Positions 1 to 14,920 of a stretch of DNA of 14,964 nucleotides are shown in pieces. Under the pieces are notes generated by a model. It did no database searches. It was given only the letters and a program-made list of their open reading frames with translations, and was not told the origin of the DNA. Each line of letters begins with the position of its first letter. The first letter of the stretch is position 1. The DNA is from an uncultured bacterium (GTDB lineage Bacteria > UBA8481), in assembly GCA_964548165.1 (NCBI GenBank), contig CAZJQD010000062.1, positions 1 to 14,964 on the forward strand, written 5' to 3'. The position numbers and the translations under genes are program-made.

Positions 1-322
1 TGATGCCGTAGAACGTCAACGTGACGAAGAAGATCCAGCGCGCGACGGTCGCGAGCAGGGCCGGGACGGTCAGGATGTGGGCCAGGGCGAAGACCGAGAC
101 CGCGACCAGGACCGGCGTCGAGGCGCGATCGAGGAGATCGAGCAGGCAGTCGTCCATGACCGTCTCGGTCCGCGCGGCCAGCTTGCGTAGGCGCCGGCTG
201 ACGAACGAGGCGTAGACGCGCGCCGCCACGGCCAGCGCGACCACGACAACGAAGGCCACCGCGTATTCCCTCAACGAGTTGCGATAAAAAACCCGGTCCC
301 AGACCGGGTGGGTCAGGAACAT
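1..322 (-). CDS. MscS-family mechanosensitive channel protein, N-terminal ~107 codons; gene continues past the left window edge
   Basis: The minus-strand frame is open from ATG (complement of 320–322) to position 2 with no stop. It is absent from the ORF track only because the stop lies outside the window. The translation MFLTHPVWDRVFYRNSLREYAVAFVVVVALAVAARVYASFVSRRLRKLAARTETVMDDCLLDLLDRASTPVLVAVSVFALAHIL has the typical MscS-like N-terminal layout: a TM helix, a basic stretch, then a T-x-T-x-x-DD-x-L motif. An alternative GTG start (complement of 257–259) has a better SD, GAGGGA at spacing 7. Confidence 0.5.
   Translation of the reverse strand, partial: MFLTHPVWDRVFYRNSLREYAVAFVVVVALAVAARVYASFVSRRLRKLAARTETVMDDCLLDLLDRASTPVLVAVSVFALAHILTVPALLATVARWIFFVTLTFYGI
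284..309 (-). terminator. Intrinsic-terminator-like hairpin 34 nt downstream of the glgB stop
   Basis: Read on the minus strand this is 5'-ACCCGGUC UGG GACCGGGU UUUUUUAU-3'. It has a perfect 8-bp GC-rich stem (plus 291–298 / 302–309) with a 3-nt loop, immediately followed by a U6 run (plus 286–291 A-run). glgB's stop is at 343–345. Confidence 0.45.
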
Positions 323-342: not shown

Positions 343-2574
343 TCACGCCGGCCTATCTCCATGCCCGTCGGACCGGTACATCAGCAGGGACAGGGGCGGG
401 AGCGTCAGGACGACGGAGTGGAGGAGCCCGTGGTGGGCTCGCCCCTCCTCCGCCTTCACCCCCGGGAAGTTCCCGATGTCACTGCCCCCATAGATCGACG
501 CGTTCGTGTTGAAGATCTCGCGCCAGTAGCCGGCACGAGGAACGCCGACGCGATATCCCGATCGCGGGACGGCCGAGAAGTTCGCCACCACCAAGACCAC
601 CCGCCGCTCCTCGCTGCTCTTGCGGAGAAACGAGATGATGCTCTGCTCCATGTCGCGATTGTCCACCCACTGGAACCCCCGGTCCCAGTGATCCTCCTCG
701 TGCAGCGCGGGCTCGTCGCGGTACACGTGGTTGAGGTCCTTCACCAGCTTCTGGATCGACTCGTGCTCCGGTTGCTCCAGGAGCTCCCAGTCGAGCTCGC
801 GGTTCACGCCCCACTCCCCCGCCTGCGCGAACTCGCCGCCCATGAAGAGGAGCTTCTTGCCGGGGTGGGTGTACTGGAAACCGTAGAGCATCCGGAGGTT
901 GGCGAACTTCTCCTCCTTCGTCCCCGGCATCTTCTTCAAGAGCGACCGCTTGCCGTGCACGACCTCGTCGTGCGACAGGACCAGCATGTACTTTTCGCGG
1001 AAGGCATAGTCGAGCATGAAGGTCAGCTTGCCGTGGTGGTAACGGCGGTAGTAGGGCTTGCGGGTCAGGTACTCCAGCGTGTCGTGCATCCAGCCCATGT
1101 TCCACTTGTACGAGAACCCCAGGCCGCCGACGTAGTAGGGCTTGGAGACGCCGCTCCACGCCGTCGATTCCTCGGCGATCGTCACGACGCCGGGATGTCG
1201 CTCGTGCACGGCCTTGTTGAGAGAACGCATGAAGGCGATCGCCTCCAGGTTCTCGTTGCCCCCGTACTTGTTCGGCACCCACTGGCCGGGCTTGCGGGAG
1301 TAATCGAGGTAAAGCATCGACGCGACGGCGTCGACCCGGATCCCGTCCACGTGGTACTTCTCGACCCAGAAGAGCGCGCTGGAGATGAGAAAGCTCTTCA
1401 CCTCGTGGCGGCCGAAATTGAAGATGGCCGTCTTCCAGTCCGGGTGGAACCCCTGGCGCGGATCCGCATGCTCGTAGAGATGCGATCCGTCAAACCGCGC
1501 CAGGCCATGCGGATCCCGGGGGAAGTGCGCGGGCACCCAGTCGAGGAGCACGCCGATGCCGGCCTTGTGACACTCGTTGACGAAAAACATGAAGTCGTCG
1601 GGTGTGCCAAAGCGGCTGGTGGGCGCGAAATAGCTCGTCACCTGGTAGCCCCACGACTCGTCCAGCGGATGCTCCATCACCGGCATCAGCTCGATGTGCG
1701 TGTAGCCCATCTCCTTCACGTAGGGAATGAGATCCTCGGCGATCTCGCGGTAGTTGTAGAACGGCTGCTCGGGGGTGCCCTTGCGGATCCAGGACCCCGG
1801 GTGCACCTCGTAGACCGTCATGGGGCTGTGATAGTGCTTCGCGCCGGCGCGGGCCTTGAGCCACTCCTCGTCCTGCCAGGCGAACTTCTCGAGGTCCCAG
1901 ACGATCGAGGATTTCTTGGGCCGGAACTGGGCCGCGTAGGCGTAGGGGTCGCTCTTCACCAGCGTCTTGCCATCTCTCGACCGGATGACGAACTTGTAGA
2001 GCGATCCCTCCTTGAGGCCGGGCACGAAGAGTTCCCAGAGGCCGTTGCGGCCCGTGTAGTGCATCGGGTGCGTGCGCCCGCTCCAGCCGTTGAAGACCCC
2101 GGCGACGCTGACGTATTTCGCGCACGGAGCCCAGACCGTGAAGTTCACCCCCGGGACCCCCGCGTTCTTCGCGATCCGCCCCCCCAGCACCCTGTAGATG
2201 TCCGGGTGATCGCCGGCGACGAAGGCGTCGATATCCTCTTTCTTAAGCATCGACTTGAACTTGGGGTTGTAGGCGTCCTCGACCGTCCGCGCCTTGCCGT
2301 CGCGGCGGACGATCGCGATCTTGTAATCGAAGATCTCGGTGCTCGACGGAAAGCGGGCCTCGAAGAGCCCGTCGCCATGGAGCTTCTCCATGGGCGTGCG
2401 CTCTTTCGTCTCCGCGTGGACGACCTCGGCCGACTCCGCGCCGAGATCGAAGAAGCGGAGAGCAAGCCCCTTGTCGGCGCCGCGCGTCACGCGGTGAAGG
2501 CCCAGGACGGAGTGCGGGTACTTGTACTGCGCGGAGAGAAGCTTGGCGATCTGGACGCCCGTGAGTCGGCTCAT
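343..2574 (-). CDS. glgB: 1,4-alpha-glucan (glycogen) branching enzyme, GH13
   Basis: The 743-aa ORF has GlgB hallmark segments throughout, including N-terminal LGxHxV, the GH13 catalytic region (GIRVDAVASMLYLDY, HDEVVHGKRSL, EESTAWSGV) and FMGGEFAQ in the C-terminal region. Length and domain order match bacterial GlgB. The ATG is at complement 2572–2574. Confidence 0.95.
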   Translation of the reverse strand: MSRLTGVQIAKLLSAQYKYPHSVLGLHRVTRGADKGLALRFFDLGAESAEVVHAETKERTPMEKLHGDGLFEARFPSSTEIFDYKIAIVRRDGKARTVEDAYNPKFKSMLKKEDIDAFVAGDHPDIYRVLGGRIAKNAGVPGVNFTVWAPCAKYVSVAGVFNGWSGRTHPMHYTGRNGLWELFVPGLKEGSLYKFVIRSRDGKTLVKSDPYAYAAQFRPKKSSIVWDLEKFAWQDEEWLKARAGAKHYHSPMTVYEVHPGSWIRKGTPEQPFYNYREIAEDLIPYVKEMGYTHIELMPVMEHPLDESWGYQVTSYFAPTSRFGTPDDFMFFVNECHKAGIGVLLDWVPAHFPRDPHGLARFDGSHLYEHADPRQGFHPDWKTAIFNFGRHEVKSFLISSALFWVEKYHVDGIRVDAVASMLYLDYSRKPGQWVPNKYGGNENLEAIAFMRSLNKAVHERHPGVVTIAEESTAWSGVSKPYYVGGLGFSYKWNMGWMHDTLEYLTRKPYYRRYHHGKLTFMLDYAFREKYMLVLSHDEVVHGKRSLLKKMPGTKEEKFANLRMLYGFQYTHPGKKLLFMGGEFAQAGEWGVNRELDWELLEQPEHESIQKLVKDLNHVYRDEPALHEEDHWDRGFQWVDNRDMEQSIISFLRKSSEERRVVLVVANFSAVPRSGYRVGVPRAGYWREIFNTNASIYGGSDIGNFPGVKAEEGRAHHGLLHSVVLTLPPLSLLMYRSDGHGDRPA

Positions 2575-3695
2575 GCATTCACCTCGGATCTTCCCGCCAT
2601 CGCGGGCCGGCTGTCGCCGGGCGCGCGTACCTCCAGGTGCTCGGGCCGGCGCTCCGGAGGACGATACCGTACGGCGAAGCCCCGGGCACGGGGAATGGCG
2701 AGGAGCGCCTCCAGATCGCTCTCGATCCGGGCGCCCGCCTTCTCGGTCACCTCGTCCTCCAGCGGGAGGTCGAAATCGTCGGCCCCCCAGTCCAGCGCGT
2801 CGAAGGCGGCCTCGTTGAGCGTCAGCACGGAGGTCCGGACGTGGCGGACATTATCGAGGACGATGCGGCTCAGGGCGATGTGCCGGCAGTATTCCTCCGA
2901 GGAGACCTCCGAACCTCCCAGGGCCGTTGCGTAGGGCTTGTAGGTCCACGCCAGGAAACTGAAGAGCGCCCCGTCATTCTCGTCCTGGAAGCGGCGCGTC
3001 CGCTCCAGGTGCTCCAGCCGCTCGTCGATCGTCTCGTCGAACCCGATCACCATGGTCGCCGTGGTCCGAAGCCCCGCCGCGACGATGGCCTTCTGCGCCG
3101 CGAAGAACTCCGCGACCGTGTACTTGTACTTGGCGTGGCGACGCCGGAAGTCCTCGGTCAGGATCTCGGCGCCGCCGCCCGTGATCCAGTGGACGCCCGC
3201 GTCCCCGAGCCGGCGCGCCGCCTCCATGCATGTCACGCCGGCGCGCTCGGCCAGGTAGAGAAACTCGGCGATCGTCAGCGCGTAGAACTCCACGCGCCCC
3301 CCGTAGCGGCGCCGCACCCGCGCGAAGAGGTCGCAGTAGAAGTCGAGCCCGACGCCGGGGTCGAATCCGCCGTTGAAGCCGACGAGGTCGCCGCCGCGCG
3401 CGACGAGGTCGTCGATCTTCTGGAAGATCTGCTCCTCGGTCAGGCGGTAGGCGCCCGCCGCCCCCGGCAGGACGTAGAAGGCGCAGTAGTCGCACTGGGC
3501 CACGCACGTGTTCGTGTAGTTGATGATGCGCATGATGGTGTAGGTGGCCGCGCGGGGATCGTGCCAGCGGGCGCGGACGATGCCCGCCAGTGCCTTCAGT
3601 TCGCCGGGATCGGCGGACTGCCAGAGCGCGCGCGCCTCGACGATCGAGATCCGGCCTCCGTCGGCGAGCCTTCGCCCGAGAACGCCGCCCGTCAT
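2571..3695 (-). CDS. Radical SAM enzyme of the MqnC/MqnE/CofH family (futalosine-pathway menaquinone biosynthesis-like)
   Basis: The 374-aa ORF carries a CxxxCxxC cluster inside the family-specific box IINYTNTCVAQCDYCAF (NYTN-C-x3-C-x2-CAF). It also has a glycine-rich GG motif (GFNGGFDP) and a size of about 370 aa typical of MqnC/MqnE. Its stop TGA (2571–2573) overlaps the glgB ATG (2572–2574) as ATGA. Confidence 0.8.
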   Translation of the reverse strand: MTGGVLGRRLADGGRISIVEARALWQSADPGELKALAGIVRARWHDPRAATYTIMRIINYTNTCVAQCDYCAFYVLPGAAGAYRLTEEQIFQKIDDLVARGGDLVGFNGGFDPGVGLDFYCDLFARVRRRYGGRVEFYALTIAEFLYLAERAGVTCMEAARRLGDAGVHWITGGGAEILTEDFRRRHAKYKYTVAEFFAAQKAIVAAGLRTTATMVIGFDETIDERLEHLERTRRFQDENDGALFSFLAWTYKPYATALGGSEVSSEEYCRHIALSRIVLDNVRHVRTSVLTLNEAAFDALDWGADDFDLPLEDEVTEKAGARIESDLEALLAIPRARGFAVRYRPPERRPEHLEVRAPGDSRPAMAGRSEVNA

Positions 3696-3769: not shown

Positions 3770-5446
3770 TCATGCCGGCCCGCGCTCCCAGACCTCGGCC
3801 ACCAGCGACTCCAGTTCCAGGGAGAGCGGGCGCGCCGCCTGCCGTAACGGCGAGCCGTCGCTCGGAGATGAAACCGAAGAAGCGTCTCGCGGCTCCGCGG
3901 CCGAAGCCACGTCGGCCGGGGGCGCCAGATCGCCAGCCTCGGTCACCGCGCGCTCCACCGGCGGCAGGACGACGTGCGTGGTCTCGACGATGGGAACCAG
4001 CCGGGACTGCACGAAGGCGTCGTAGGCCTTGAGGCGCCGCGCCAGCACTTCCATGATCCGAAGCGCGATCGCCGGAGCGCTCCGGATGATCGTCTCGAAA
4101 TCGGCGGCGCCGATGCGGATCGCGCGCAGGGGCTCGATGGCCCGGACGGTGGCGAACCGCGGCGCGCCGTCGAGGAGCGACATCTCGCCGAAGAAGGCGC
4201 CCTTCCCGAGCAACGCGAGGACGCGCTCTTCTTCGCCCCCCGCGCGCGTGACCCGCGCCACGCCGTCGAGAATGAAGTAGAGATCGCGATCCGCGGAACC
4301 CTCCCGGACGACGATCTCACCCGCACCGTACGAACAGCCGTGACGCGCAAAGAGAGGCTCGAAGTTCACGGCCCACTCCACGGTCTCGGTCGTGGACCCG
4401 ATGCCGGCGGACTCCACGAGGCCCGCGCCTGCCGGGCGCTCGCCTGCCGGGCGCTCGCCTACCAGGCGCTCGACCGGGCGCGGAGGCGACGCGGGCAGGG
4501 GCTGGCTGAAGACGCGATCGGGTGGCTCGGCGACCGGAGAAAACGCCGACTTCGTCGCCGGCGAAGACGGAGCCGGGGGCGGCTGCCCGGACGGCAGGGG
4601 CACGGGCACCCCCGGAGGCGCGGCGGCCGCCACGCCCGGATCCACGGCTTTCAGGAGCGGCTTGAGATCCTCGATCTTCACGCGCAGCTCCGCGCTCCCC
4701 GATCGCGAGACCGCCTGCAGGGACATGCTCAGGAACTTCAACGCCCGCGCATGCCGCGCCGCCCGATCCGTTCCCGGGGCCTCGAGAAGCATGTAGTTCG
4801 TCGCGGCGATCATGTAGGGAATCGCCTCCTGGCCGAAGTTAACGCCATAGTCAGGGCCCACATACAGGCCGTCCGGGAGGCTCTCCTTCACGTACCCCTG
4901 CTCGAGAAATTCGTCCGCTGTCACCAGGGCGTCCGTCACGGCGCGGCCCGCATCCCACGGCAAGGTCATGCCCGACGCCGCCGCAAGCTCGATCATCCAC
5001 GCGCGGCGATAGGCGATCCAGCCGATCCGAAAGGCGCGGATCGGCCCGCTCCGGGCGCGATACCAGGTGTCGGCCAGGAGATAGGAGACAAGCCCGAGGC
5101 GCAGGTCGCGCGTCGCTTCCAGGGCCGCCGACGTGATGCCCCACTTCTTGAGGAGCGCTCGTCCCTCGTGGGCCGCCGACTCGCGGACGGCCGTGTCGAT
5201 CTTGATCCGCGCGTCGTCGAACTCGGACTCGACGGCGGTCAGCGTGCAGGCCGGACAGATCGCCAGCGAGTAGACGAGGGGATCCGGCATACCGCCCGGC
5301 AAGGCGTCGTAGACGTTGCGGAGCCGCCAATCGCGCGCCTTGGCCGCCACCTTGCGCGTCAGCAGTTTCTCGTAGGAGAAGGCGCAACTGCACGCGGGGC
5401 ACATCTTCGCCACCTGGTAGGTCCAGGTCGTCAAGCGGTCGGCCAT
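3770..5446 (-). CDS. Fusion protein: N-terminal DUF2225-like zinc-ribbon/helical domain + Pro/Ala-rich linker + C-terminal cyclic-nucleotide-binding (CAP-effector) domain
   Basis: The 558-aa ORF has a strong SD (AAGGGGGAG) 7 nt upstream of the ATG. The N-terminus has two CxxC pairs in the DUF2225 pattern (KMCPACSCAF ... DPLVYSLAICPACTLTAVESEF), followed by helical TPR-like sequence. Residues ~355–475 form a canonical cNMP-binding fold with phosphate-binding cassette FGEMSLLDGAPRFATVRA (G-E-x-S-L-L-x-x-x-P-R-x-A-T-V-x-A). A Pro/Ala-rich linker (res. 270–345) contains ERPAGERPAG repeats. Confidence 0.85.
   Translation of the reverse strand: MADRLTTWTYQVAKMCPACSCAFSYEKLLTRKVAAKARDWRLRNVYDALPGGMPDPLVYSLAICPACTLTAVESEFDDARIKIDTAVRESAAHEGRALLKKWGITSAALEATRDLRLGLVSYLLADTWYRARSGPIRAFRIGWIAYRRAWMIELAAASGMTLPWDAGRAVTDALVTADEFLEQGYVKESLPDGLYVGPDYGVNFGQEAIPYMIAATNYMLLEAPGTDRAARHARALKFLSMSLQAVSRSGSAELRVKIEDLKPLLKAVDPGVAAAAPPGVPVPLPSGQPPPAPSSPATKSAFSPVAEPPDRVFSQPLPASPPRPVERLVGERPAGERPAGAGLVESAGIGSTTETVEWAVNFEPLFARHGCSYGAGEIVVREGSADRDLYFILDGVARVTRAGGEEERVLALLGKGAFFGEMSLLDGAPRFATVRAIEPLRAIRIGAADFETIIRSAPAIALRIMEVLARRLKAYDAFVQSRLVPIVETTHVVLPPVERAVTEAGDLAPPADVASAAEPRDASSVSSPSDGSPLRQAARPLSLELESLVAEVWERGPA
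4426..4470. repeat. 15-bp tandem repeat x3 (cgcctgccgggcgct / cgcctgccgggcgct / cgcctaccaggcgct), coding
   Basis: The repeat is directly visible in the sequence. On the minus strand it encodes (V)GERPAGERPAG within the inter-domain linker of the DUF2225–cNMP protein. Confidence 0.8.
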
Positions 5447-5467
5447 GTATCTACTCCCCCTTGATCA

Positions 5468-6766
5468 TCAACGGTGCGCCGCGGTCGTGGCCGACGACGG
5501 CGCGCCGGGCGTCGCCAGCGCGCCGGGCGCCGCCAGCGCCCGCCACCGACGCTCAGCCTCACGCGCGGCCACCTCGGGCCTCGTCCCCGCGAAGACGCGG
5601 TCGAGGCACCCGGGTTCCCCGGTCACGTCATCGCGCATCATCACGGTCCAGACGTGCTGCATCTGGACATCCGTCGGCATCAGCACCGCCGAGTCCCAGA
5701 AGACCTGCGGCCGCGCGGTGAGCGGATGGCTCGAGAGCGCGTCGAACTCGTAGGCCCGGCGATTCGCGGGCATGTATCCCGCCACGACGTTCATCAGGCA
5801 CCCGCTGAAGGGCGACGTGAGGTGGCGCATCACCTCGACGGCCAGGTCCACCCGCGGCGAGTGCGCGGCAACCGCGAACGCCTTCACCCCGAGAAACGGC
5901 GCCGGGTGCCGGCGCGAGGGTGATAACAGCGGGAGCGGTGCGATGCCGATCGGGATGCGGTCCCATGCCAGGCTCCCGTAGGCCCAGGGGCCGCTGATGA
6001 GAAAGGGCGCGCGGCCGCTGTTGAAGATCGCCATCTGCCGCTCCCAATCCACCGTGTCCGGGATCACGTGCTGAACGCGCGCCAGGTCCCGGGCGAAAGC
6101 GAGCGACTTGAGCATCGCGGGGCTTCGCACGGCGAAGTTGCCCCTCGCGTCGAAGACCTGGCCGCCGAACCCGTGCAACCACATCGCATGGAAGTAGAAG
6201 TTGGCGCGTTCGTACACGATCCCCCAGCGATCCCGGCGCGGGTCCGCGAAGCGCCGGGCCGTGGCCAGCATCTCGTTGGTCGTCCGCGGCGCGCGGTCGA
6301 CGAGGTTGCGGTTGTAATAGAGCATCAGCGACTCGAACGAGAGCGGGAGTCCGTAGAGCTTGCTCTCATGGCGAAGCGGGGTCACGCACTGCGGGATGAA
6401 ATCGGAAAGCTCGGCCGAGTCGATCCGCGAATCGAGCGGCAGGAGCCACCCGCGCCGCGCCCAGGGCACGATCTTGTCGTGGGCCCAGACCACGAGGTCC
6501 GGCGATCCCGCCCCCGGCTCCGCCAGCGCCGACTCGACCCGGGCTATGTACTCGGCCCCGTCGATGGCAACGAGCTTCACCTGGTTCTCGTGAGCCTCAT
6601 TGAAGGCCGCGACCGCCGTCTCCAGGGCCTCCGCCTCGCGTCCCCGGAAGGAGTGCCAGAGCGTCACCGCTTCCGCGGACGCCGGCGCGGTGAACGACAG
6701 GATGAGAGCGAGCCCGAAAAGGCCGGCGACGAAGCCACGGGCGACCGTGCGGATCATGCGAAGCAT
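5468..6766 (-). CDS. Periplasmic ABC-transporter substrate-binding protein, family 1 (MalE/maltodextrin-binding-like), orphan
   Basis: The 432-aa ORF has an N-terminal signal peptide (MLRMIRTVARGFVAGLFGLALILSFTAPASA-EA). The mature N-terminal region aligns by eye to the MalE N-lobe: LWHSF...ALETAVAAFNE...VKLVAID...GSPDLVVWAHDKI...GWLLPLD versus MalE LVIWING...FEKDTGIKVTV...GPDIIFWAHDRFG...GLLAEITP. No permease or ATPase genes are adjacent. There is an Ala/Pro-rich C-terminal tail. Confidence 0.8.
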   Translation of the reverse strand: MLRMIRTVARGFVAGLFGLALILSFTAPASAEAVTLWHSFRGREAEALETAVAAFNEAHENQVKLVAIDGAEYIARVESALAEPGAGSPDLVVWAHDKIVPWARRGWLLPLDSRIDSAELSDFIPQCVTPLRHESKLYGLPLSFESLMLYYNRNLVDRAPRTTNEMLATARRFADPRRDRWGIVYERANFYFHAMWLHGFGGQVFDARGNFAVRSPAMLKSLAFARDLARVQHVIPDTVDWERQMAIFNSGRAPFLISGPWAYGSLAWDRIPIGIAPLPLLSPSRRHPAPFLGVKAFAVAAHSPRVDLAVEVMRHLTSPFSGCLMNVVAGYMPANRRAYEFDALSSHPLTARPQVFWDSAVLMPTDVQMQHVWTVMMRDDVTGEPGCLDRVFAGTRPEVAAREAERRWRALAAPGALATPGAPSSATTAAHR

Positions 6767-6810: not shown

Positions 6811-7548
6811 CTACCCCTCGATGGCGAAGTTGATGGTCACGACGGCCATGGCTTCCTTGTCGCGGCTGGAGGTATCCAGCATGCCGCCGTCGGAGACCTC
6901 CGTGGAGTTGACGGGCCGGACCTGGAAGACGCCGACGCGCACGCCGCGCGCGGTGCCCAGCGTCGATCCCGTCTTCGTCGCGATCGCGGTCGCGCGCTCC
7001 CGGGCGTTCGCGGCGGCCTCGCCGGCCAGCTCGATCTTCAAGGCCTCGAGCCCCGTGAAGAAGTACTGCGGCTCGTCGGACTCGAAGTACAGGCCCTCCT
7101 CCAGGAGGTCCGTAGCCGAGCTGGCCAGCTTGACGAGGAAGTCGACGTCGCGGGACGTGATCTTGAAGTTGAGCGTCAGCTGGTAGCCGATCACTTCCTC
7201 GGTCGTGCCGTACCCATTGGGGTTGGGTTTACGGATGGCCTCCGTGTTCAAGGGCGGGATCTCGATGTCCGAATCCTTCACACCCTGGCGGCGGAAATAC
7301 ACGAGCACCTTCTCGCGCGCCGTCTTCAACGCCGCGTAGGCGCTCTGCACGTCGGCTCCACGGACCCGGATGCGCGAGTTCCAGACGGCCATGTCGGAGC
7401 TGATGGGACGGATGGCCGAACCCGTGACCGTCAGCGTCTGCCCCGACGCCTTCAATTCAGCGAGGGGCCCAGCGAGGATGAACGCGGATAGGGCCAGCCC
7501 GGCGGCGAGCACCAACCCGAAGACAACAAGACCTGGTTGACGATTCAT
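6811..7548 (-). CDS. SIMPL-domain (DUF541; BP26/OMP28 / YggE-like) periplasmic protein
   Basis: The 245-aa ORF has a signal peptide or TM anchor. The C-terminal motif GVFQVRPVNSTEVSDGGMLDTSSRDKEAMAVV matches the conserved SIMPL core. SD GGAGAAGG lies upstream of the ATG. Confidence 0.8.
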   Translation of the reverse strand: MNRQPGLVVFGLVLAAGLALSAFILAGPLAELKASGQTLTVTGSAIRPISSDMAVWNSRIRVRGADVQSAYAALKTAREKVLVYFRRQGVKDSDIEIPPLNTEAIRKPNPNGYGTTEEVIGYQLTLNFKITSRDVDFLVKLASSATDLLEEGLYFESDEPQYFFTGLEALKIELAGEAAANARERATAIATKTGSTLGTARGVRVGVFQVRPVNSTEVSDGGMLDTSSRDKEAMAVVTINFAIEG

Positions 7549-7659
7549 AATTCACATTCCTTCTCCGGCGGCGTCCTGCGCCTCACCGGTCACTCACACC
7601 CGTTGGACCAGCCGGACTCCCCGAAAGTTCCAGACCCCGGCTCTTCTGACCCTTCCTCC

Positions 7660-9570
7660 CTACCGCGCGTGGGCGTCCTCCAGGTAGGTGTACCCCGAGA
7701 GCCCCGACTCGTAGAAGCGAAGGAAAAGAGTCGCTTCCTCGACCGTCATCTTCTTGGCCCGGACGGCCTGCTCCACGTCCTTGCGGATCGCGTTGAGCAT
7801 CTCGTCGGGATTGTACTCCACGAAGGAGAGAACCTCGCGAACCGTGTCCCCCTTCACCACGTGGTCGATGGAGACCTCGCCGTCCTCGTCGATGGAGACG
7901 TGCACGGCGTTGGTGTCCCCGAGGAGGTTATGCAGGTCCCCGAGGATCTCCTGGTAGGCGCCGACGAGGAAGGCCGCGAGGTAGTAGTCCTTGCCGTCGT
8001 AGGGATGGAGTTCCAAGGTCTTCTTCACGTCGTGGAGCTCGATGAAGCGATCGATCTTGCCGTCAGAGTCGCAGGTGATGTCCGCGAGGATGGCCCGGCG
8101 CGTCGGTTCTTCCGTGAGCCGGTGGATGGGCATGATCGGGAAGAGCTGGCGGATGGCCCAGCTGTCCGGCATCGACTGGAAGATGGAGAAGTTGCAGAAG
8201 TAGGTGTCCGAGAGCTGGCTCTGGAGGTTCTCCATCTCCTCCGGCACGTGCTCCATGTCCTGCGTCATCTTCAGGATCCGCCCGCAGATCGACCAGTAGA
8301 GGCTCTCGACCTGGCACCGCTCCTTGAGGTTGAGGTGGCCGAGGTTGAAGAGGTTGAGCGCGTCCTCGCGGAGCTGTTGGGCGTCGTGGTAGACCTCGTT
8401 GACGTTCTTCGCCGTGATGGTCTTGGCGACCTCGAAGAGCTCCTTCAAGGGCATCGAGGCGTCCGGCAGGGGCGCCTCGGGAACGCGGAAGTCGTCGAAG
8501 CGGGCGACGCCGAGGACGTTGAAGATCAACGCGCTGTGGTAGGCCACGACGGCGCGGCCGGACTCGGAGATGATCGTCGGGTGGGGAATGCCCGCCTGGT
8601 CGCAAACGGACTTCACCCGGAAGACGATGTCGTTGGCATACTCCTGGAGCGTGTAGTTGACTGAGGACTCGAAGTTCGACTGCGAGCCGTCGTAGTCGAC
8701 GCCGAGCCCGCCGCCGACGTCGATGTAGCAGAGCCCGGCGCCGCTCTGCTTCAGCTCGGCGTAGATCCGGCAGGCCTCCGTCAGCGTCTCCTTGATCTTG
8801 CGGATGTTGGTGACCTGGCTCCCCATGTGGTAGTGCAAGAGCTTCATGCAGTCGGCCATGCCACGGTCCTGGAGGTACTGAAGCGCGTTGGAGACCTCCA
8901 TCACGGTCAGGCCGAACTTGGATCGGTATCCGGCCGAGAGCTCCCAGCGCCCCGACCCCTTGCTGGCCAGTTTAACCCGCACGCCCAGCTGGGGGCGCAC
9001 CTGGTGGATCTCGGCGTATTTCACGATCAGCTCGAGCTCGGTGAACTTCTCCACGACGGGGATGATGTTCCGGCCGATCTTCTGCGCCAGGATCACCGTC
9101 TCGATGAACTCGTCGTCCTTGAAGCCGTTGCAGATGATGGGGACCTTCATGCCGGCCGTGCACGCCAGGACGGCGAGGAGCTCGGGCTTGGAACCCGCCT
9201 CGATCCCGAAGCCATACTCCTTGCCGAAGTCGAGGATCTCCTCGACGACGTGTCTCTGCTGGTTGACCTTGATCGGGTAGACACAGCAGTACTCGCCGCG
9301 GAACTCGTACTCCTGGATCGCGTTGCGAAATGCCTGGGCCACGTCGCCGAGGCGGTGGCGGAGGATGTCGGTGAAGCGGATCAGGAGGGGCGCGGAGAGC
9401 CCGCGCAGCTCGAGCTGCTTGACGAGCTCAGGAAGGTTGATGGCGTGATCGGGACGCTTGTCCGGATGCACGGTGACATTGCCCTCGGGACTGACGGCGA
9501 AATAGCCCTGTCCCCAGTTCTTGATGTTGTAGCAGTCGATGGAATCCTGGACCGTCCACTTGATATCCAT
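7660..9570 (-). CDS. speA: Biosynthetic arginine decarboxylase (PLP-dependent, fold III)
   Basis: The 636-aa ORF begins with MDIKWTVQDSIDCYNIKNWGQGYFAVSPEGNVTVHP, which is the SpeA N-terminal signature. A YPIKVNQQRHVVE motif carries the PLP-binding Lys, and the Orn/Arg/DAP-decarboxylase barrel and C-terminal domain are present. Length matches SpeA (~630–660 aa). Confidence 0.95.
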   Translation of the reverse strand: MDIKWTVQDSIDCYNIKNWGQGYFAVSPEGNVTVHPDKRPDHAINLPELVKQLELRGLSAPLLIRFTDILRHRLGDVAQAFRNAIQEYEFRGEYCCVYPIKVNQQRHVVEEILDFGKEYGFGIEAGSKPELLAVLACTAGMKVPIICNGFKDDEFIETVILAQKIGRNIIPVVEKFTELELIVKYAEIHQVRPQLGVRVKLASKGSGRWELSAGYRSKFGLTVMEVSNALQYLQDRGMADCMKLLHYHMGSQVTNIRKIKETLTEACRIYAELKQSGAGLCYIDVGGGLGVDYDGSQSNFESSVNYTLQEYANDIVFRVKSVCDQAGIPHPTIISESGRAVVAYHSALIFNVLGVARFDDFRVPEAPLPDASMPLKELFEVAKTITAKNVNEVYHDAQQLREDALNLFNLGHLNLKERCQVESLYWSICGRILKMTQDMEHVPEEMENLQSQLSDTYFCNFSIFQSMPDSWAIRQLFPIMPIHRLTEEPTRRAILADITCDSDGKIDRFIELHDVKKTLELHPYDGKDYYLAAFLVGAYQEILGDLHNLLGDTNAVHVSIDEDGEVSIDHVVKGDTVREVLSFVEYNPDEMLNAIRKDVEQAVRAKKMTVEEATLFLRFYESGLSGYTYLEDAHAR

Positions 9571-9738
9571 GGTTGGCGAATCGTCTCCCGTCGGCGGTTC
9601 AACATGCTGCGGGCGGGAGCGACTCCGACCGGAGGCCGGGACCGTGACCCCGACCGATCGCGAACATTAGCGCCCGTCGTCGCTCGCGCAATACAAATAT
9701 GGCGTAGGGACGGCGATAAACTTGTTACACTTCTCACC
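9571..9738. promoter_or_regulatory. Divergent intergenic region (speA <- -> hypothetical/dsbD) containing an AT-rich island
   Basis: This 168-bp non-coding gap lies between two divergently oriented start codons. Positions ~9690–9738 (caatacaaatatggcgtagggacggcgataaacttgttacacttctcacc) are markedly AT-rich relative to the ~70 % GC background, as expected for promoter or regulatory DNA. No confident -35/-10 hexamers could be assigned. Confidence 0.3.
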
Positions 9739-10737
9739 ATGCTCCTCGGTCCGCACAGTCTCCTGGTCCTCGCCGTCCTTCTCGTGGGCGCCGGCTTGTA
9801 CCATCGCGAGACCGTGCCGACACCGGGCCTTACCCAGGCGGCCGCGGGGGTCGAGTCTCCCGTGTCGGTCGCGCCGCAGCCTGTCACACCGCCCGTGTCA
9901 GTCGCTCCGCAGGCGGGTGTCACCACCGCGCCCCTTCCGGCCACGCTCCAGGCCGCGATCGACCAGGCCCTCACGAGCGGTAATCCCGCGCCTCTTGGAA
10001 ACAGTCGCCTCCCGCGCCTCGGCGACCTCACCCCGCCTCAACTCGAAGGCGTCGCCCGACGCTTCGCCGCCTGGCCGGCTCCACGACGAGCCGCCGCCTT
10101 CGCCTTTCTCCTGGTCGGGACTCCCTACAGGAACGGACCCCTGGGCGAAGAGGCTCCTCCCGATACCGATCCCCTGTTCGCCACCCGCCCCGTCGACTGC
10201 GCCACCGTCAATCTCGTTGCCATGTCGCTCGCTCACGTCCCCGAGTCGGGCACCCCGCGCGAGGCCATGCGCCATGCGAACTATCGCCATGGGCGCATCG
10301 GCTACGCGACTCGCCTGCACTTCACGACTGACCGCCTCGACGTCAGCCCCTACAACAAGGACATCACGCGCCTCATCGGCGGCCGGGCGACGCGATCCCG
10401 CGTCGTCACGCTGAACCGCCGCCCGAACGGCACACCGTGGATTCCCATCGAGTGGCGACGAACGCGCAGGGTCTGGTACATCCCCATCGCCGAGGCGCGA
10501 AACTTCGCCGCTCGCTGGCGTGAAGGGCGCCTGCCGGAAGCGGTCGGCGTCGCCTTCGTTTCCGAAAGGATGATGGCCCAGGGGCTCGACGTGATCCACG
10601 AGTCGCTTCTCTGGCAGGGGCAGACCCTCCTGCACGGCTCCAGTAGCGCCGGCAGCGTCTCCACCGTGGACTGGAACCATTACCTGGACAGCCAGGGATC
10701 GCGCATCGACGGCGTGGTGGTCTTTGCGTATCGCTAG
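9739..10737 (+). CDS. Hypothetical membrane-anchored periplasmic protein: N-terminal TM helix, Pro-rich repeat linker, ~230-aa globular domain with single Cys (possible papain-like/NlpC-P60-superfamily-like hydrolase)
   Basis: The 332-aa ORF is the sense-strand portion of track ORF 8827..10737, which upstream of 9739 is antisense to speA. It starts MLLGPHSLLVLAVLLVGAGLY, a hydrophobic anchor. Residues 40–60 carry the PVSVAPQ repeat. The globular region has the motif GTPY-x(20)-VDCATVNLV followed by His residues (H179, H184, H194, H288), which is reminiscent of G-x-PY...DCSG-hydrophobic in NlpC/P60-like Cys hydrolases. Its 3' end overlaps dsbD by 14 bp. Confidence 0.65.
   Translation: MLLGPHSLLVLAVLLVGAGLYHRETVPTPGLTQAAAGVESPVSVAPQPVTPPVSVAPQAGVTTAPLPATLQAAIDQALTSGNPAPLGNSRLPRLGDLTPPQLEGVARRFAAWPAPRRAAAFAFLLVGTPYRNGPLGEEAPPDTDPLFATRPVDCATVNLVAMSLAHVPESGTPREAMRHANYRHGRIGYATRLHFTTDRLDVSPYNKDITRLIGGRATRSRVVTLNRRPNGTPWIPIEWRRTRRVWYIPIAEARNFAARWREGRLPEAVGVAFVSERMMAQGLDVIHESLLWQGQTLLHGSSSAGSVSTVDWNHYLDSQGSRIDGVVVFAYR
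9859..9924 (+). repeat. Imperfect 33-bp tandem duplication encoding PVSVAPQ(P/A)VT Pro-rich repeats
   Basis: cccgtgtcggtcgcgccgcag-cctgtcacaccg / cccgtgtcagtcgctccgcag-gcgggtgtcacc. It lies inside the linker of the hypothetical protein. Confidence 0.7.
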
Positions 10738-12664
10738 AGCCCTGATCGCCGCCGCGCTCCTTCTCGTCGGCATCGTCTCCACCGCGACAGCCTTCGGGCC
10801 TGCTCCGTTCGCCGTCACCGCGACGATCGCGAATGACCTCGCCCTCGCCAGCTCCGGCACCCTGGTCGTCACGCTTGACGTTCCACCCCATCTCCACGTC
10901 AACGCCGCCCGACCCACCTTCGACTACTTGATCCCGACCACGATCGCGGTCGAAGGCGCGCCTGGCCCAGGCGCGCCCGGGGTCCGGATCGGAACGCCGC
11001 GCTTCCCCTCCCCGAAGATGCTCGCCGTCGGGGGCATGAACGAGCCCATTGCCGTCTACGACGGCTCCGTCCGCATCCGCGTCCCAATCACGGTCGATCC
11101 CGCCGCCTCGCCCGGACCGCGCACGCTTCGCGGGACAGTCCGCTACCAGGCCTGCGACGACCAATCCTGCTATCCTCCCGTCGAGGTCGCCTTCACCACG
11201 ACCTTCACCGTAACCGACGCCCGGTCGCCGATCGCGGAGCCGGAGCCCGCGTTTCTCCTCCCGCCGCCCGCCGACGAACTTCCGGTCGACGATGCTCTCC
11301 CCCCCACCGCCGATACCGCGGGTTCCGCAGCCGGCGCGAGCGCCGTCCCGACCGCGGTCGTGCCCCTCCCCGGATCCACGCCCGGCCTCCCCCTCATGCT
11401 CCTCTTCGCCTTCCTCGGCGGACTCCTCCTCAACCTCATGCCCTGCGTCCTGCCCGTGCTCTCGCTCAAGATCATGAGCCTCATCAAGAACGCGCACGAA
11501 TCGCGCGGCCGAGCCGCCGCCCTGGGGCTCGCCTATACCGGAGGCGTCCTCGTCTCCTTCTGGTCCCTCGCCGCGCTCATCCTTGTCCTGCGATCCGCCG
11601 GCGCCGCGGTCGGCTGGGGCTTCCAGTTCCAGAATCCCCACTTCGTCACCGTCCTCTCCGGGATCGTCACCGCCTTCGCCCTGAGCCTCTTCGGCGCCTT
11701 CGAGATCAACCTGCCGGGCGCGGCGGGTACCCGCATGGCCGCGGCCTCCTCGCGCGAGGGCGTCCCGGGCGCCTTCCTCGGCGGCGTCTTCGCCACGCTC
11801 CTCGCGACGCCCTGCACGGCCCCCTTCCTCGGCGCCGCCATGGGGTTCGCCTTCGCCCAGCCTGCCGGCATTCTCATCGCCGCCTTCACCGCCGCCGCCC
11901 TCGGGCTCGCTCTCCCCTACCTCCTCCTTGTCATCACGCCCGCCGCTCGACGTCTCCTGCCGCGACCCGGCGCCTGGATGGAACGGCTCAAGCAGGGCTT
12001 CGGCTTCCTCATGCTCGCCACCCTCCTCTGGCTCTGGTTCGTCCTCGGCCAGCAGGCCGGCGTCCTCGCCCTCATCGCCGTCGCCGGCTGGAACCTCGTC
12101 GCCGCCTTCGCGATCTGGTCCTCCTTCGCCGCCGCCGGGCTCGATGCCGGCGCCGCGAAGCGATGGACGGCGCGCCTCGTCATGGTCGGAGTCATCGTCG
12201 GCAGTTGGTTCCTGCTCGTCTCTCCCGCGCTGGTCCCCGCGCCCGCCTCACCCGACGGCCGCACTCCCCTCAGCACATATGCCAGCATGGCCCCGGAAGA
12301 TATCCCGGCAGGCACCTGGATCCCCTACGACGCCGACCTCCTCGCGAAGCTTCGCGCCGCCGGCCGCACCGTCTTCGTCGATGCCACCGCCGACTGGTGC
12401 CTCACCTGCAAGGTCAACGAGCGCACCGTGCTCAAGACGGAGCGCATTCAAGAGGCCTTCCTCCGAGAGAACGTCGTCCTGATGATCGCCGACTGGACGC
12501 TCCAGGACCATGCGGTCACGGATCTGCTCGCCGGCTTCGGCCGCGCCGGCGTCCCGTTCTACGTCCTCTACCCGGGTACCGCGAATCCCATCACGCTCCC
12601 GGAATTGCTGACAGCCTCCATCGTCGAAGACGCTCTCGCCCGGGGTCGTCCCCCGACGCCCTGA
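10724..12664 (+). CDS. dsbD: Thiol:disulfide interchange protein DsbD (three-domain: DsbD-alpha, CcdA-like TM beta, thioredoxin-like gamma)
   Basis: The 646-aa ORF begins at a TTG start at 10724, followed by a signal peptide (RIARALIAAALLLVGIVSTATA-FG). The alpha-domain Cys pair is QACDDQSC (C144/C149). The TM core has the conserved Cys residues LMPCVLPVL and ATPCTAPFL. The C-terminal thioredoxin fold carries WCLTCK (CxxC). The exact start is uncertain, as there is no in-frame ATG nearby. Confidence 0.9.
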   Translation: MRIARALIAAALLLVGIVSTATAFGPAPFAVTATIANDLALASSGTLVVTLDVPPHLHVNAARPTFDYLIPTTIAVEGAPGPGAPGVRIGTPRFPSPKMLAVGGMNEPIAVYDGSVRIRVPITVDPAASPGPRTLRGTVRYQACDDQSCYPPVEVAFTTTFTVTDARSPIAEPEPAFLLPPPADELPVDDALPPTADTAGSAAGASAVPTAVVPLPGSTPGLPLMLLFAFLGGLLLNLMPCVLPVLSLKIMSLIKNAHESRGRAAALGLAYTGGVLVSFWSLAALILVLRSAGAAVGWGFQFQNPHFVTVLSGIVTAFALSLFGAFEINLPGAAGTRMAAASSREGVPGAFLGGVFATLLATPCTAPFLGAAMGFAFAQPAGILIAAFTAAALGLALPYLLLVITPAARRLLPRPGAWMERLKQGFGFLMLATLLWLWFVLGQQAGVLALIAVAGWNLVAAFAIWSSFAAAGLDAGAAKRWTARLVMVGVIVGSWFLLVSPALVPAPASPDGRTPLSTYASMAPEDIPAGTWIPYDADLLAKLRAAGRTVFVDATADWCLTCKVNERTVLKTERIQEAFLRENVVLMIADWTLQDHAVTDLLAGFGRAGVPFYVLYPGTANPITLPELLTASIVEDALARGRPPTP

Positions 12665-12677
12665 ACCACCACGCGGG

Positions 12678-12708
12678 TTGACAAGGCACAAAGAGCTGTT
12701 GTTTGATA
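12678..12708 (+). promoter_or_regulatory. Candidate sigma70-like promoter for the flotillin gene
   Basis: A perfect TTGACA sits at 12678–12683 in the 117-bp dsbD–flotillin gap. Downstream candidates TTTGAT or TTGATA lie at 12702–12708, giving an 18–19-nt spacer. The -10 is weak, so this is tentative. Confidence 0.3.
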
Positions 12709-12781
12709 GGCGCACACGTCCAGCTCACGCCGCCCGCCACGCTCTCCCGAACGATAGACGACATCCTTGCGGGGGTAGTTC

Positions 12782-14920
12782 ATGTCCACAATCATCGGCT
12801 TGATAGGCACGGTCATCGGCGGCCTCATACTCCTGGTCATCGTCTACGGTGTCCTGCGTCTCGTCGTCGGCTGGACCTATCGTATCCCCCAGCAAGGACA
12901 GGCCCTGGTCCGGACCGGCCTCGGCGGCATCAAGGTCGCCTACGAGAGCGGCATCTTCGTGATGCCCATCGTCCACAAGCTCGAGATCATGGACATCGGC
13001 ATCAAGCGCGTCGAGATTCACCGCCACGGGGCCACGGGCCTCATCTGCAAGGATAACCTCCGGGCCGACATCAAGGTCACCTTCTACGTGCGCGTCGATT
13101 CCAGCAACCCCATGAACACCGTGCACGTCGCCCAGACGCTCGGCTGCGTCCGCGCCTCCGACGCCCAGGTGCTCGCCGAGCTCTTCGAGCCCAAGTTCTC
13201 GGACGCCCTCAAGACGGCGGGACGCGAGTTCAACTTCGAGGACCTCTTGAACAAGCGCGTCGAACTGCGCACCGCCATCAAGCGCCACGTCGGCACCGAC
13301 CTCAACGGCTACGCGCTCGACGACGCCGCCATCGACCTCCTGGAACAGACAAAGGTCGAGATGCTCGATCCCAACAACATCCTCGACTCCGAAGGCATCA
13401 AGCTCATCACCGAGAGAACCGCGACGCAGTCCATCCTCACCAACGAGCGCAACCGCGATCGCGAGCGCGAGATCAACAAGAAGGACGTCGAGACCCGCGA
13501 GATCATCCTCGAGCAGAACCGCCAGCTCGCCGAGGCCGAGGAGAAGCAGAAGCGCGAGATCGCCTCGATCAAGGCGCGCGAGGACGCCGAGACCGTGCGG
13601 TTCCAGCAGGAACAGCGTCTCAAGGCCGAGAAGGCCCGCATCGCCTCGGACGAGGAGCTCCAGGTCGCCGAGGAGAATCGGAAGCGCCAGGTCATCGTGG
13701 CCGAGCGCAACCGCGAGTCCACGGACGCGGTCGAGAAGGTCCGGGTCGAGAAGAACCGCCAGATCGAGGACATCGAGCGCGACAAGATCGTCTCCCTCGC
13801 CGGGATCGAGAAGCAGAAGGTCGTGGAGACCGAGCAGAAGAACATCCAGGAGGTCATCCGCGCCCGCGTGATGGTCCAGAAGGACGTCGTGATCGAGGAG
13901 CAGAAGATCAAGGACACCGAGGCGTTCGCCACGGCCGATCGCGAGAAGAAGGTGCTGCTGACGATGGCCGAGGCCGAGGCCGAGCAGGCGGTCGTGAAGA
14001 ACATCAAGGCCGCCGAGGCCGCCAAGAAGACGGCCGAGCTCAAGGTCGACGCCGACGGCATCGTGCTCGTCCGGAACGCCGAGGCCGCCAAGAAGGCCGC
14101 GGAACTGAGAGCCGACCAGGACGTGCTCGTCGCGGTGAAGGGCGCGGAAGCCCAGAAGAAATCGGCCGAGCTCATCGCCGAGAAGGTCGTCATCGAGGCG
14201 GAAGGCGAGCAGAACGCGGCCGCCCGCATCTCCACCGGCAAGAAGGTCCTGGCCGAGGGCGTCTCGGCCGAGCAGGCGGCAACCGGGCTGGCCGAGGCGG
14301 CCGTCATTGAGGCAAAGGCGGCGGCGTTCGGCAAGCAGGGCCAGACCGAGGCCGAGGTCGCTCGCCTCAAGGCCCAGGCCGAGGCCGACGGGATCGTCAA
14401 GAAGGCCGAGGCCATGAAGCTCTTTCACGAGGCCGGGAAGGAGCACGAGGAGTTCAAGATCACGACGCAGACGGAGAAGGACATCGCCCTCGCCGAGATC
14501 GGCATCCGCAAGGATATCGCGGAAAGCCAGGCCAAGGTCGTCGGCGCCGCGCTCGCGAACGCTCGCGTCGATATCGTCGGCGGAGAGACCCAGTTCTTCG
14601 ACCGCATCGTCAACGCGGTTACGGGCGGCAAGGTCGTGGAGCGGACGATCGAGAACTCCCGGACGCTCTCAGGCCTTCGCGACACCCTCTTGGACGGCGA
14701 CCCCGAGGCCTGCCGCCACCGGATCCGGGAATGGGTCGGGCGGTTCGGCATCTCCTCCGAGGACCTGAAGAACCTCTCCATCGCCGCCGCGCTCACGCGC
14801 ATGCTCTCGCTCGCCGGCGATGCCGAATCCAAGAGGTCGGTCCGGGGACTCCTCAAGCAGGTGAAGGACGCGGGGATCGGCGAGGAACTCATCACGGGCA
14901 TCATCGGTAAGACCGAGTAA
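12782..14920 (+). CDS. Flotillin-family SPFH/Band-7 protein (YqiK/FloT-like) with extended coiled-coil
   Basis: The 712-aa ORF has an N-terminal TM helix (MSTIIGLIGTVIGGLILLVIVYGVL). The SPFH core (QALVRTGLGG...FVMPIVHK...DIKVTFYVRV) is followed by a very long E/A/K/R-rich coiled-coil with flotillin-type EA repeats. SD GGGGG sits 9 nt upstream of the ATG. Confidence 0.9.
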   Translation: MSTIIGLIGTVIGGLILLVIVYGVLRLVVGWTYRIPQQGQALVRTGLGGIKVAYESGIFVMPIVHKLEIMDIGIKRVEIHRHGATGLICKDNLRADIKVTFYVRVDSSNPMNTVHVAQTLGCVRASDAQVLAELFEPKFSDALKTAGREFNFEDLLNKRVELRTAIKRHVGTDLNGYALDDAAIDLLEQTKVEMLDPNNILDSEGIKLITERTATQSILTNERNRDREREINKKDVETREIILEQNRQLAEAEEKQKREIASIKAREDAETVRFQQEQRLKAEKARIASDEELQVAEENRKRQVIVAERNRESTDAVEKVRVEKNRQIEDIERDKIVSLAGIEKQKVVETEQKNIQEVIRARVMVQKDVVIEEQKIKDTEAFATADREKKVLLTMAEAEAEQAVVKNIKAAEAAKKTAELKVDADGIVLVRNAEAAKKAAELRADQDVLVAVKGAEAQKKSAELIAEKVVIEAEGEQNAAARISTGKKVLAEGVSAEQAATGLAEAAVIEAKAAAFGKQGQTEAEVARLKAQAEADGIVKKAEAMKLFHEAGKEHEEFKITTQTEKDIALAEIGIRKDIAESQAKVVGAALANARVDIVGGETQFFDRIVNAVTGGKVVERTIENSRTLSGLRDTLLDGDPEACRHRIREWVGRFGISSEDLKNLSIAAALTRMLSLAGDAESKRSVRGLLKQVKDAGIGEELITGIIGKTE
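14009..14209 (+). repeat. Three tandem ~66-bp (22-aa) coding repeats in the flotillin coiled-coil
   Basis: AEAAKKTAELKVDADGIVLVRN / AEAAKKAAELRADQDVLVAVKG / AEAQKKSAELIAEKVVIEAEG. The nucleotide units gccgccgaggccgccaagaagacggccgagctc... recur with ~66-bp period. Confidence 0.75.

Follow-up and report, generated by a model that had tools for sequence, protein, structure and literature searches.

A divergent DUF2225 protein with an intact cyclic-nucleotide-binding domain: a candidate cAMP-gated adaptor in an uncultured bacterium

In the window analyzed here, a 14,964-nt stretch of contig CAZJQD010000062.1 from an uncultured bacterium, a minus-strand gene at positions 3770 to 5446 encodes a protein that joins a DUF2225 module to a cyclic-nucleotide-binding (CNB) domain. 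On balance, we lean toward reading this fusion protein as a cytoplasmic adaptor, probably gated by cAMP, with DUF2225 as the output that the CNB domain regulates. A first, sequence-only reading of the window had placed the two domains in one open reading frame (ORF), and both Pfam models score above their curated cutoffs. DUF2225 (PF09986) covers residues 15 to 189 with 42.9 bits against a cutoff of 21 (E = 6.2e-11), and cNMP_binding (PF00027) covers residues 372 to 455 with 73.5 bits against 27.5 (E = 1.4e-20). Along the chain, the DUF2225 module is followed by a linker, the CNB domain, an acidic tail, and a conserved terminal helix. Neither Pfam nor NCBIfam returned a helix-turn-helix (HTH), kinase, cyclase, or phosphodiesterase model for the protein, as the first reading had also stated, and the NCBIfam models for CRP, Pat, NtcA, and FtrB cover only the CNB part, far below their cutoffs. 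DUF2225 is thus the only candidate effector, since no classical output domain is present. No hydrophobic stretch resembling a transmembrane segment was apparent when the protein sequence was read by eye, and a soluble, cytoplasmic protein is predicted.

The architecture is not peculiar to this contig. A search of 5.8 billion clustered proteins returned an identical protein (P0001 in public collections) and six homologues with 39 to 57% identity, all carrying this pair of domains in this order, and a profile of the N-terminal domain added one further member, P0038. When this profile was run exhaustively with HMMER against 1.84 billion representatives, 275 proteins matched at E values up to 1e-3; the clade to which the window protein belongs is small, as only seven of these matches fell below 1e-30. 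Counting clusters at 90% identity together with the 50%-identity representatives from the exhaustive search, the clade comprises about 10 sequence clusters at 33 to 66% identity, in which DUF2225 always precedes the CNB domain and the phosphate-binding cassette of the latter is always canonical. The members with a named origin come from Hydrogenedentota and Lindowbacteria metagenome-assembled genomes (MAGs). Only 1 of 185,579 species representatives in GTDB carries a clade member, and none was found in two scans of the JGI metagenome-contig collection. An artifact of gene fusion was considered and rejected, because the same single ORF occurs in about 10 independent clusters from different samples.

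As far as its sequence can tell, the CNB domain lacks none of the residues required for holding the ribose-phosphate of a cyclic nucleotide. It is made up of an N-terminal helix, a beta-barrel, and a long conserved C-helix (residues ~458 to 487), and its sequence matches in the PDB include the regulatory (R) subunits of protein kinase A (PKA), protein kinase G, SthK, MloK1, and CRP. In the AlphaFold2 model of the homologue P0038 (not of the window protein itself), strands occupy residues 303 to 377 and helices residues 295 to 302, 379 to 388, and 390 to 422, with a predicted local distance difference test (pLDDT) value mostly between 86 and 97; the eight-stranded barrel and the N-terminal and B/C helices of the CNB fold are all present there. 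The phosphate-binding cassette ranks among the most conserved stretches of the fusion protein, with F418, F419, G420, E421, R430, A432, T433, and V434 invariant in the clade. The first reading had called this cassette intact, and careful alignment bears it out, with both the Glu (E421) and the Arg (R430) in place. In HMMER alignments to PDB sequences, FGEMSLLDGAPRFATVRA pairs without gaps with FGELALIYGTPRAATVKA (site A) and FGEIALLLNRPRAATVVA (site B) of PKA RI, and the cassette matches both sites of RI alpha and RI beta column for column. In CNB folds, the cassette Glu contacts the ribose 2'-OH and the Arg contacts the phosphate. In the alignment, E421 and R430 occupy these ribose- and phosphate-binding positions, opposite E200/R209 and E324/R333 of PKA RI.

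The nature of the ligand can be narrowed further, although with less certainty. In the C-helix, P458, A461, I464, M465, L468, R471, Y475, F478, and V479 are invariant in the clade, and Y475 falls on Y371 of RI alpha, the residue that stacks on the adenine in site B, in a part of the alignment where confidence is moderate. Phe follows the cassette Arg, with Ser or Val in its place in two homologues. As cGMP-selective sites typically have Thr at this position, cAMP would be the favored ligand. Furthermore, all 12 examined proteins with DUF2225 in front of the CNB domain, that is, the clade and two other lineages, keep the Gly, Glu, Arg, and following Ala of the cassette, whereas Glu and Arg are both kept in only 7 of the 24 representatives with the opposite order. 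Because of this difference, the window's clade is the form likeliest to be a true cyclic-nucleotide receptor.

The other half of the protein is a divergent but recognizable DUF2225 module, consisting of a predicted zinc ribbon (residues ~1 to 80) and about seven helices resembling tetratricopeptide repeats (TPR). The Pfam match in the window protein spans profile positions 7 to 156 of 214, and other members of the clade reach 77.7 bits over positions 6 to 212. The paired CxxC motifs by which the family had first been recognized here, C16/C19 and C64/C67, do not vary within the clade, and these four cysteines, together with Y46, P56, and Y59, show at least 90% conservation across 150 DUF2225 representatives; in the wider family, conservation peaks in this ribbon, its Tyr and Pro residues included. 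A GPDY(G)xNFG loop (residues 197 to 205) is conserved as well, with GPDY...FG invariant in the clade alignment. The features of PF09986 are therefore all found in the window protein: the profile match, the four-Cys ribbon pattern, and the C-terminal TPR-like helical array. An AlphaFold2 model of residues 1 to 270, built from a 56-sequence alignment, reached a pLDDT of 94.3 and a predicted template modeling score (pTM) of 0.92. It places the CxxC pairs on or beside two beta-hairpins, followed by seven long helices, with a conserved 17-residue loop (residues 188 to 204) between two of them. The N-domain profile found nothing better than E = 1.7 among PDB sequences, and Foldseek with the model found no match below E = 0.04; the structural neighbors are generic TPR arrays that bind proteins or peptides. 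Judging from this model, the DUF2225 fold has no solved structural relative beyond generic helical repeats, and a fold of this class suggests binding of proteins or peptides without indicating a specific function.

It is important to consider how common such fusions are, as the first reading had presented this one as unusual and DUF2225 as normally a stand-alone protein. A Pfam scan of the 150 best DUF2225 representatives from the 1.84 billion proteins found DUF2225 in 149, cNMP_binding in 32, Response_reg in 5, and GGDEF in 1. By local HMM coordinates, the CNB domain precedes DUF2225 in 24 of these 32 and follows it in 8. Receiver (REC) domains stand on either side of DUF2225, C-terminal in P0109 and P0153 and N-terminal in P0151, and P0081 has a REC-GGDEF-DUF2225 arrangement. 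Stand-alone proteins make up 97 of 154 in the sample, about two-thirds. Neither description therefore holds as it was put: a CNB domain accompanies DUF2225 in about a fifth of its best representatives, in one order or the other, and the stand-alone state was overstated. The architecture is even named in JGI automatic annotation, as 'CRP-like cAMP-binding protein/uncharacterized protein (DUF2225 family)', and the window protein is a divergent member of an architecture already in databases, with no study of it in the literature. When the DUF2225 parts alone were compared by BLAST, the window's clade was self-contained, and P0098 and P0159, which also have DUF2225 first, fell among canonical DUF2225 sequences beside REC-fused, CNB-fused, and stand-alone proteins. 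Since the fusions sit in different DUF2225 lineages, they arose several times independently. The proposal of a cyclic-nucleotide receptor with DUF2225 as its effector thus loses its claim to rarity and keeps its intact site and its lack of any other output domain; the functional idea is in fact strengthened, as DUF2225 has been joined repeatedly and independently to signal-receiver modules. As a separate observation, some proteins of about 400 residues (e.g., P0121 and P0138) carry an N-terminal extension of ~150 residues without a Pfam match, possibly a CNB or receiver domain that has degenerated.

Between and behind the two domains, the protein is far less constant. The linker is Pro/Ala-rich and repeat-containing, as had been noticed from the sequence: 25% of its residues are Pro and 16% Ala, and GERPA occurs twice (residues 330 to 339, nt 4430 to 4459). 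Its length varies from ~20 to 100 residues across the clade, with only ~20 in P0038 (446 residues). In contrast, the terminal helix is amphipathic and kept throughout the clade, the short-linker P0038 included, with L541, E544, L545, L548, and E551 invariant; in P0038 it is predicted at residues 429 to 445 with a pLDDT of about 65. The alignment indicates that purifying selection acts on the architecture as a whole, since the two domains and the C- and terminal helices are kept while the linker varies. In the tail and terminal helix, the isoelectric point (pI) is 4.1 to 4.5, against a mildly basic N-terminal domain (residues 1 to 265; pI 8.5 in the window protein and 8.0 to 9.1 across all clade members), and this charge complementarity makes an intramolecular contact between DUF2225 and the tail or terminal helix plausible.

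A mechanism can be proposed on this basis. The C-terminal CNB domain would bind a 3',5'-cyclic nucleotide, most probably cAMP, and binding would reposition the conserved long C-helix, perhaps moving the acidic terminal helix as well. The contact of the sensor with the mildly basic DUF2225 module would then change, within one chain or across a dimer, and DUF2225, a zinc ribbon capped by a TPR-like array, would engage or release a partner. DUF2225 itself may be a generic output or adaptor module, placed under a cyclic-nucleotide sensor, a phospho-receiver, or a receiver with GGDEF. Going one step further, and more tentatively, it is possible that DUF2225 is a widespread unrecognized output module, independently wired under CNB, REC, and REC-GGDEF, which controls a conserved machine, possibly related to motility, and of which the window's clade is the ligand-switchable form.

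Several observations weigh against the gated adaptor. Packing of the two domains was modeled on the short-linker homologue P0038, as the ~130 disordered residues of the window protein would make its pTM uninformative. The P0038 model has an overall pLDDT of 89, with both domains confident and the linker below 50, and its pTM of 0.69 lies between the value for two independent domains and that for a fixed assembly; it does not fix the relative position of the domains. The length and flexibility of the linker likewise make an obligatory rigid interface less likely. Ligands of other kinds are also bound by CNB-fold domains of bacteria, and 17 of the 24 CNB-first proteins lack the cassette Glu and/or Arg although the fusion is nonetheless retained, so that much of the wider family would be no classical cyclic-nucleotide sensor. 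Furthermore, no family-wide partner gene emerged across six fusion and three stand-alone DUF2225 contexts, and there is no cyclase domain within the 15-kb window. The coordinates of the gene, its parts, and its neighbors are collected in Table 1.

Table 1. Features of the fusion gene and its neighborhood in the window
Feature	Residues	Position (nt)	Strand	Basis or remark
Fusion-gene ORF, complete	558 plus stop	3770..5446	-	ATG start; single ORF
Shine-Dalgarno sequence GGGGGAG		5454..5460	-	From direct reading of the sequence; 7 nt upstream of the ATG
DUF2225 module	1-265	4652..5446	-	Pfam, clade alignment, AlphaFold2 model
First CxxC, C16-P-A-C19	16-19	5390..5401	-	Invariant in clade; at least 90% conserved across 150 DUF2225 representatives
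Second CxxC, C64-P-A-C67	64-67	5246..5257	-	Invariant in clade; at least 90% conserved across 150 DUF2225 representatives
Pro/Ala-rich linker	266-350	4397..4651	-	Not conserved; length variable
cNMP-binding domain	351-492	3971..4396	-	Pfam, PDB sequence matches, AlphaFold2 model of P0038
Phosphate-binding cassette FFGEMSLLDGAPRFATVRA	418-436	4139..4195	-	Clade alignment, PDB alignments
Acidic tail, low complexity, pI 4.1	493-537	3836..3970	-	Not conserved; length not constant
Acidic C-terminal helix, L-x-L-E-L-E-S-L-V-A-E-V	538-558	3773..3835	-	Clade alignment
MalE-like solute-binding protein gene, upstream		5468..6766	-	Probably co-transcribed; same pairing in L086
MqnC-like radical-SAM gene, downstream		2571..3695	-	Same order in L004 and L086
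glgB, glucan branching enzyme		343..2574	-	Start overlaps radical-SAM stop by 4 nt
Terminator-like hairpin		291-309		After glgB; only good one in this gene run

On the minus strand, the genes run in the order speA, SIMPL, solute-binding protein, fusion gene, MqnC-like radical SAM, and glgB. The immediate neighbors are those that the sequence-only reading had named, a radical-SAM/glgB pair and an orphan sugar-binding protein, and no transporter permease or ATPase gene lies beside the binding-protein gene. The stop codon of the latter (5468 to 5470) is 21 nt from the start of the fusion gene, and 74 nt separate the fusion gene from the radical-SAM gene, whose product has MqnC as its best match (279 bits, below the equivalog cutoff of 428). 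The series fusion gene, radical SAM, glgB recurs at two homologous loci, L004 (41% identity) and L086 (55% identity). In L004, the run has an overlapping stop and start and is followed by a pullulanase gene, and speA, an AmiA-like gene, and dsbD are nearby, as in the window; in L086, the run includes the solute-binding-protein gene. An MqnC-like paralogue beside glycogen genes is a feature conserved in L004 and L086 also. Gene order of this kind most simply reflects shared ancestry among related genomes, and a survey of conserved neighbors, which the first reading had proposed, found the window's neighborhood only in closer relatives and not in the family as a whole.

The more distant fusion genes have other surroundings. 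In L002 and L003, these are a class III cyclase, a CxxCxxCC protein, mutY, and a small CNB protein. In L002, from a Hydrogenedentota MAG, the DUF5939 class III cyclase and the CxxCxxCC protein (7361 to 9966) are divergent from the fusion gene, after which come mutY and a 161-residue stand-alone CNB protein (12510 to 12995); this region may be a local cyclic-nucleotide signaling cluster. The fusion gene of L085 is preceded by relA, a radical-SAM gene, cpYpsA, and aroE and followed by an HD_5 phosphohydrolase gene, while in L087 and L088 a pterin dehydratase gene comes before it. Other second-messenger genes near homologues are a GGDEF gene in L004 and a CNB protein gene in L088, and such scattered occurrences are suggestive at best.

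Could the fusion protein instead be a regulator of carbon metabolism, coupling cAMP to glycogen or maltodextrin metabolism through a contact of DUF2225 with a co-transcribed neighbor? The tight same-strand spacing, the single good terminator-like hairpin behind glgB, and the recurrence of the gene series in L004 and L086 would fit such a role, but the linkage is absent from L002/L003, L085, and L087/L088, and the three syntenic loci also share speA, dsbD, and AmiA-like genes, so that the linkage looks like an order inherited by related genomes and not like a functional operon. As stand-alone DUF2225 genes lack such neighbors as well, we consider this role unlikely. Far less probable still is a Pycsar-like antiphage effector, with a CNB domain that senses a cyclic pyrimidine and DUF2225 as the toxic part. 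PADLOC models for PycTIR and other effectors do match (E = 4e-15 to 9e-6), and the class III cyclase two genes away in L002 has a weak similarity to PycC (E = 3e-12). However, the PADLOC matches cover the CNB domain only (residues 373 to 481; profile positions 42 to 146) and are no stronger than those to PKA or SthK, a Pfam scan found no TIR domain in the fusion protein, and no cyclase adjoins the gene in the window, L004, L085, L086, or L087. The gene is embedded among housekeeping genes with conserved synteny, and searches of 72,556 plasmids and 50,697 phage records returned nothing for its DUF2225 part. Moreover, DUF2225 is a core gene of spiral spirochaetes and linked to motility there (PMC12236494). 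A defense system was therefore rejected, given that only the CNB domain resembles the PADLOC models and that plasmids and phages hold no DUF2225-like sequence.

Two further explanations concern the domains themselves. The protein might be a noncanonical transcription factor that dimerizes through its C-helix and uses a basic zinc ribbon in place of an HTH. Zinc ribbons often bind nucleic acids, the N-terminal domain is consistently basic, and the C-helix, which measures ~33 residues in the model of P0038, is long and conserved like that of CRP/FNR dimers. Nevertheless, no DNA-binding model matches the protein, the structural neighbors of DUF2225 are protein- or peptide-binding TPR arrays and not DNA binders, the domain order is the reverse of that in CRP with a long, floppy linker in between, and the net charge is only mildly basic, all of which makes this role quite doubtful. 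Alternatively, the CNB-like domain might sense no cyclic nucleotide at all and act as a structural or dimerization partner of DUF2225, or bind another small molecule. The degenerate cassettes of the CNB-first proteins show that the pairing can persist without classical cyclic-nucleotide binding, and this explanation would fit many proteins of that order. By sequence it does not fit the window's clade, in view of the cassette retained in every DUF2225-first protein and its rank among the most conserved stretches; for the window protein itself, we judge it improbable.

Elsewhere in the window, a 712-residue ORF at 12782 to 14920 (plus strand) combines a hydrophobic segment at the N terminus with a very long helical region rich in Glu, Lys, and Ala. 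No Pfam model matches it at E below 1e-3, the DNA there shows a strong AT skew (+0.3 to +0.4), and the protein resembles, by eye, those of the flotillin/SPFH type. On the plus strand at 9823 to 10737 lies an AmiA-like amidase gene (PF07313, E = 8e-18); the ORF listed there as 8827 to 10737 is over-extended and antisense to speA. No family matches the minus-strand ORFs at 9898 to 10917, 10406 to 11641, and 12725 to 14446, which resemble the antisense artifacts of high-GC DNA. In the region of the AmiA-like gene and dsbD (9500 to 13000), the GC skew is -0.16 to -0.25, compared with about 0 elsewhere. The SpeA protein of the window is 76% identical to a Hydrogenedentota MAG protein, its best named relative, and 73 to 74% identical to Acidobacteriota MAG proteins, so that an origin of the contig in Hydrogenedentota is only a tentative assignment.

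These results emphasize that the fusion protein reveals no new principle of sensing but gives an experimental handle on a widespread domain. The advance is a modest one, since databases already list this architecture and the way in which the sensing half operates is well understood. DUF2225 spans many bacterial phyla, with a single published phenotype and no mechanism; the literature found on DUF2225, PF09986, and COG1655 otherwise consists of passing mentions, and the one phenotype is a motility defect in Leptospira. There, deletion of the Leptospira biflexa DUF2225 gene LEPBIa0550 reduced spreading in soft agar and left growth and cell shape unchanged (2025 preprint, PMC12236494). Taken together, the repeated fusions to three kinds of signal-receiver modules, a rare clade with a canonical site, and a fold with no solved relative yield a testable hypothesis, that of a ligand- or phosphorylation-gated adaptor. 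A protein that a nucleotide can switch would be the simplest route to a DUF2225 binding partner; if the window's clade is indeed the switchable form, the partner could be fished for with and without cAMP.

Compared with known systems, the DUF2225 half has its closest counterparts in the stand-alone proteins of PF09986, with which it has the CxxC pairs, the LRxxY, PLxY, and GPD motifs, and a TPR-like tail in common; LEPBIa0550 of L. biflexa is an example, likened to the window protein by family only. Stand-alone proteins have no sensor domain, whereas the window protein carries one, and its DUF2225 part is divergent, with 20 to 25% identity to the nearest of them and 42.9 bits against the 90 to 200 typical of the family. 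CNB-first proteins of about 400 residues (P0085 from a Dehalococcoidia MAG, P0154, and P0165) contain the same two Pfam domains, but their order is opposite, their DUF2225 is canonical, their cassette is mostly degenerate, and their fusion is an independent one. The likeness to TPR receptors of the RNPP/Rap type (NprR, RapH, and PlcR) is generic, with 5 to 13% identity over 120 to 130 aligned residues; these receptors lack a zinc ribbon, and there is no evidence of their homology to DUF2225.

For the sensing half, site B of the PKA regulatory subunit is the best sequence match in the PDB (E = 9e-17), with a gap-free cassette and Y475 aligned to Y371, but the window protein has one CNB domain rather than two and lacks the inhibitor and dimerization-docking segments and the kinase partner. 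With CRP/FNR it shares the CNB fold, the Gly-Glu...Arg cassette, and the long C-helix; the NCBIfam CRP model matches the CNB domain only (E = 3.8e-11; 42.8 bits against a cutoff of 266). It differs from CRP/FNR in having no HTH (no match to HTH_Crp_2) and in the N-terminal position of its partner domain. The nearest parallels in design are fusions of one canonical CNB domain to an effector that does not bind DNA: mycobacterial Pat (CNB-GNAT, PDB 4ava), Bd1971 of Bdellovibrio (CNB-EAL, PDB 6hq5), and the MloK1 and SthK channels, all of which are among the sequence matches of the window protein. In those systems, the activity of the effector is known, whereas here the effector is DUF2225, without known activity, and, unlike theirs, the sensor of the window protein is C-terminal, tethered by a linker of up to ~85 residues.

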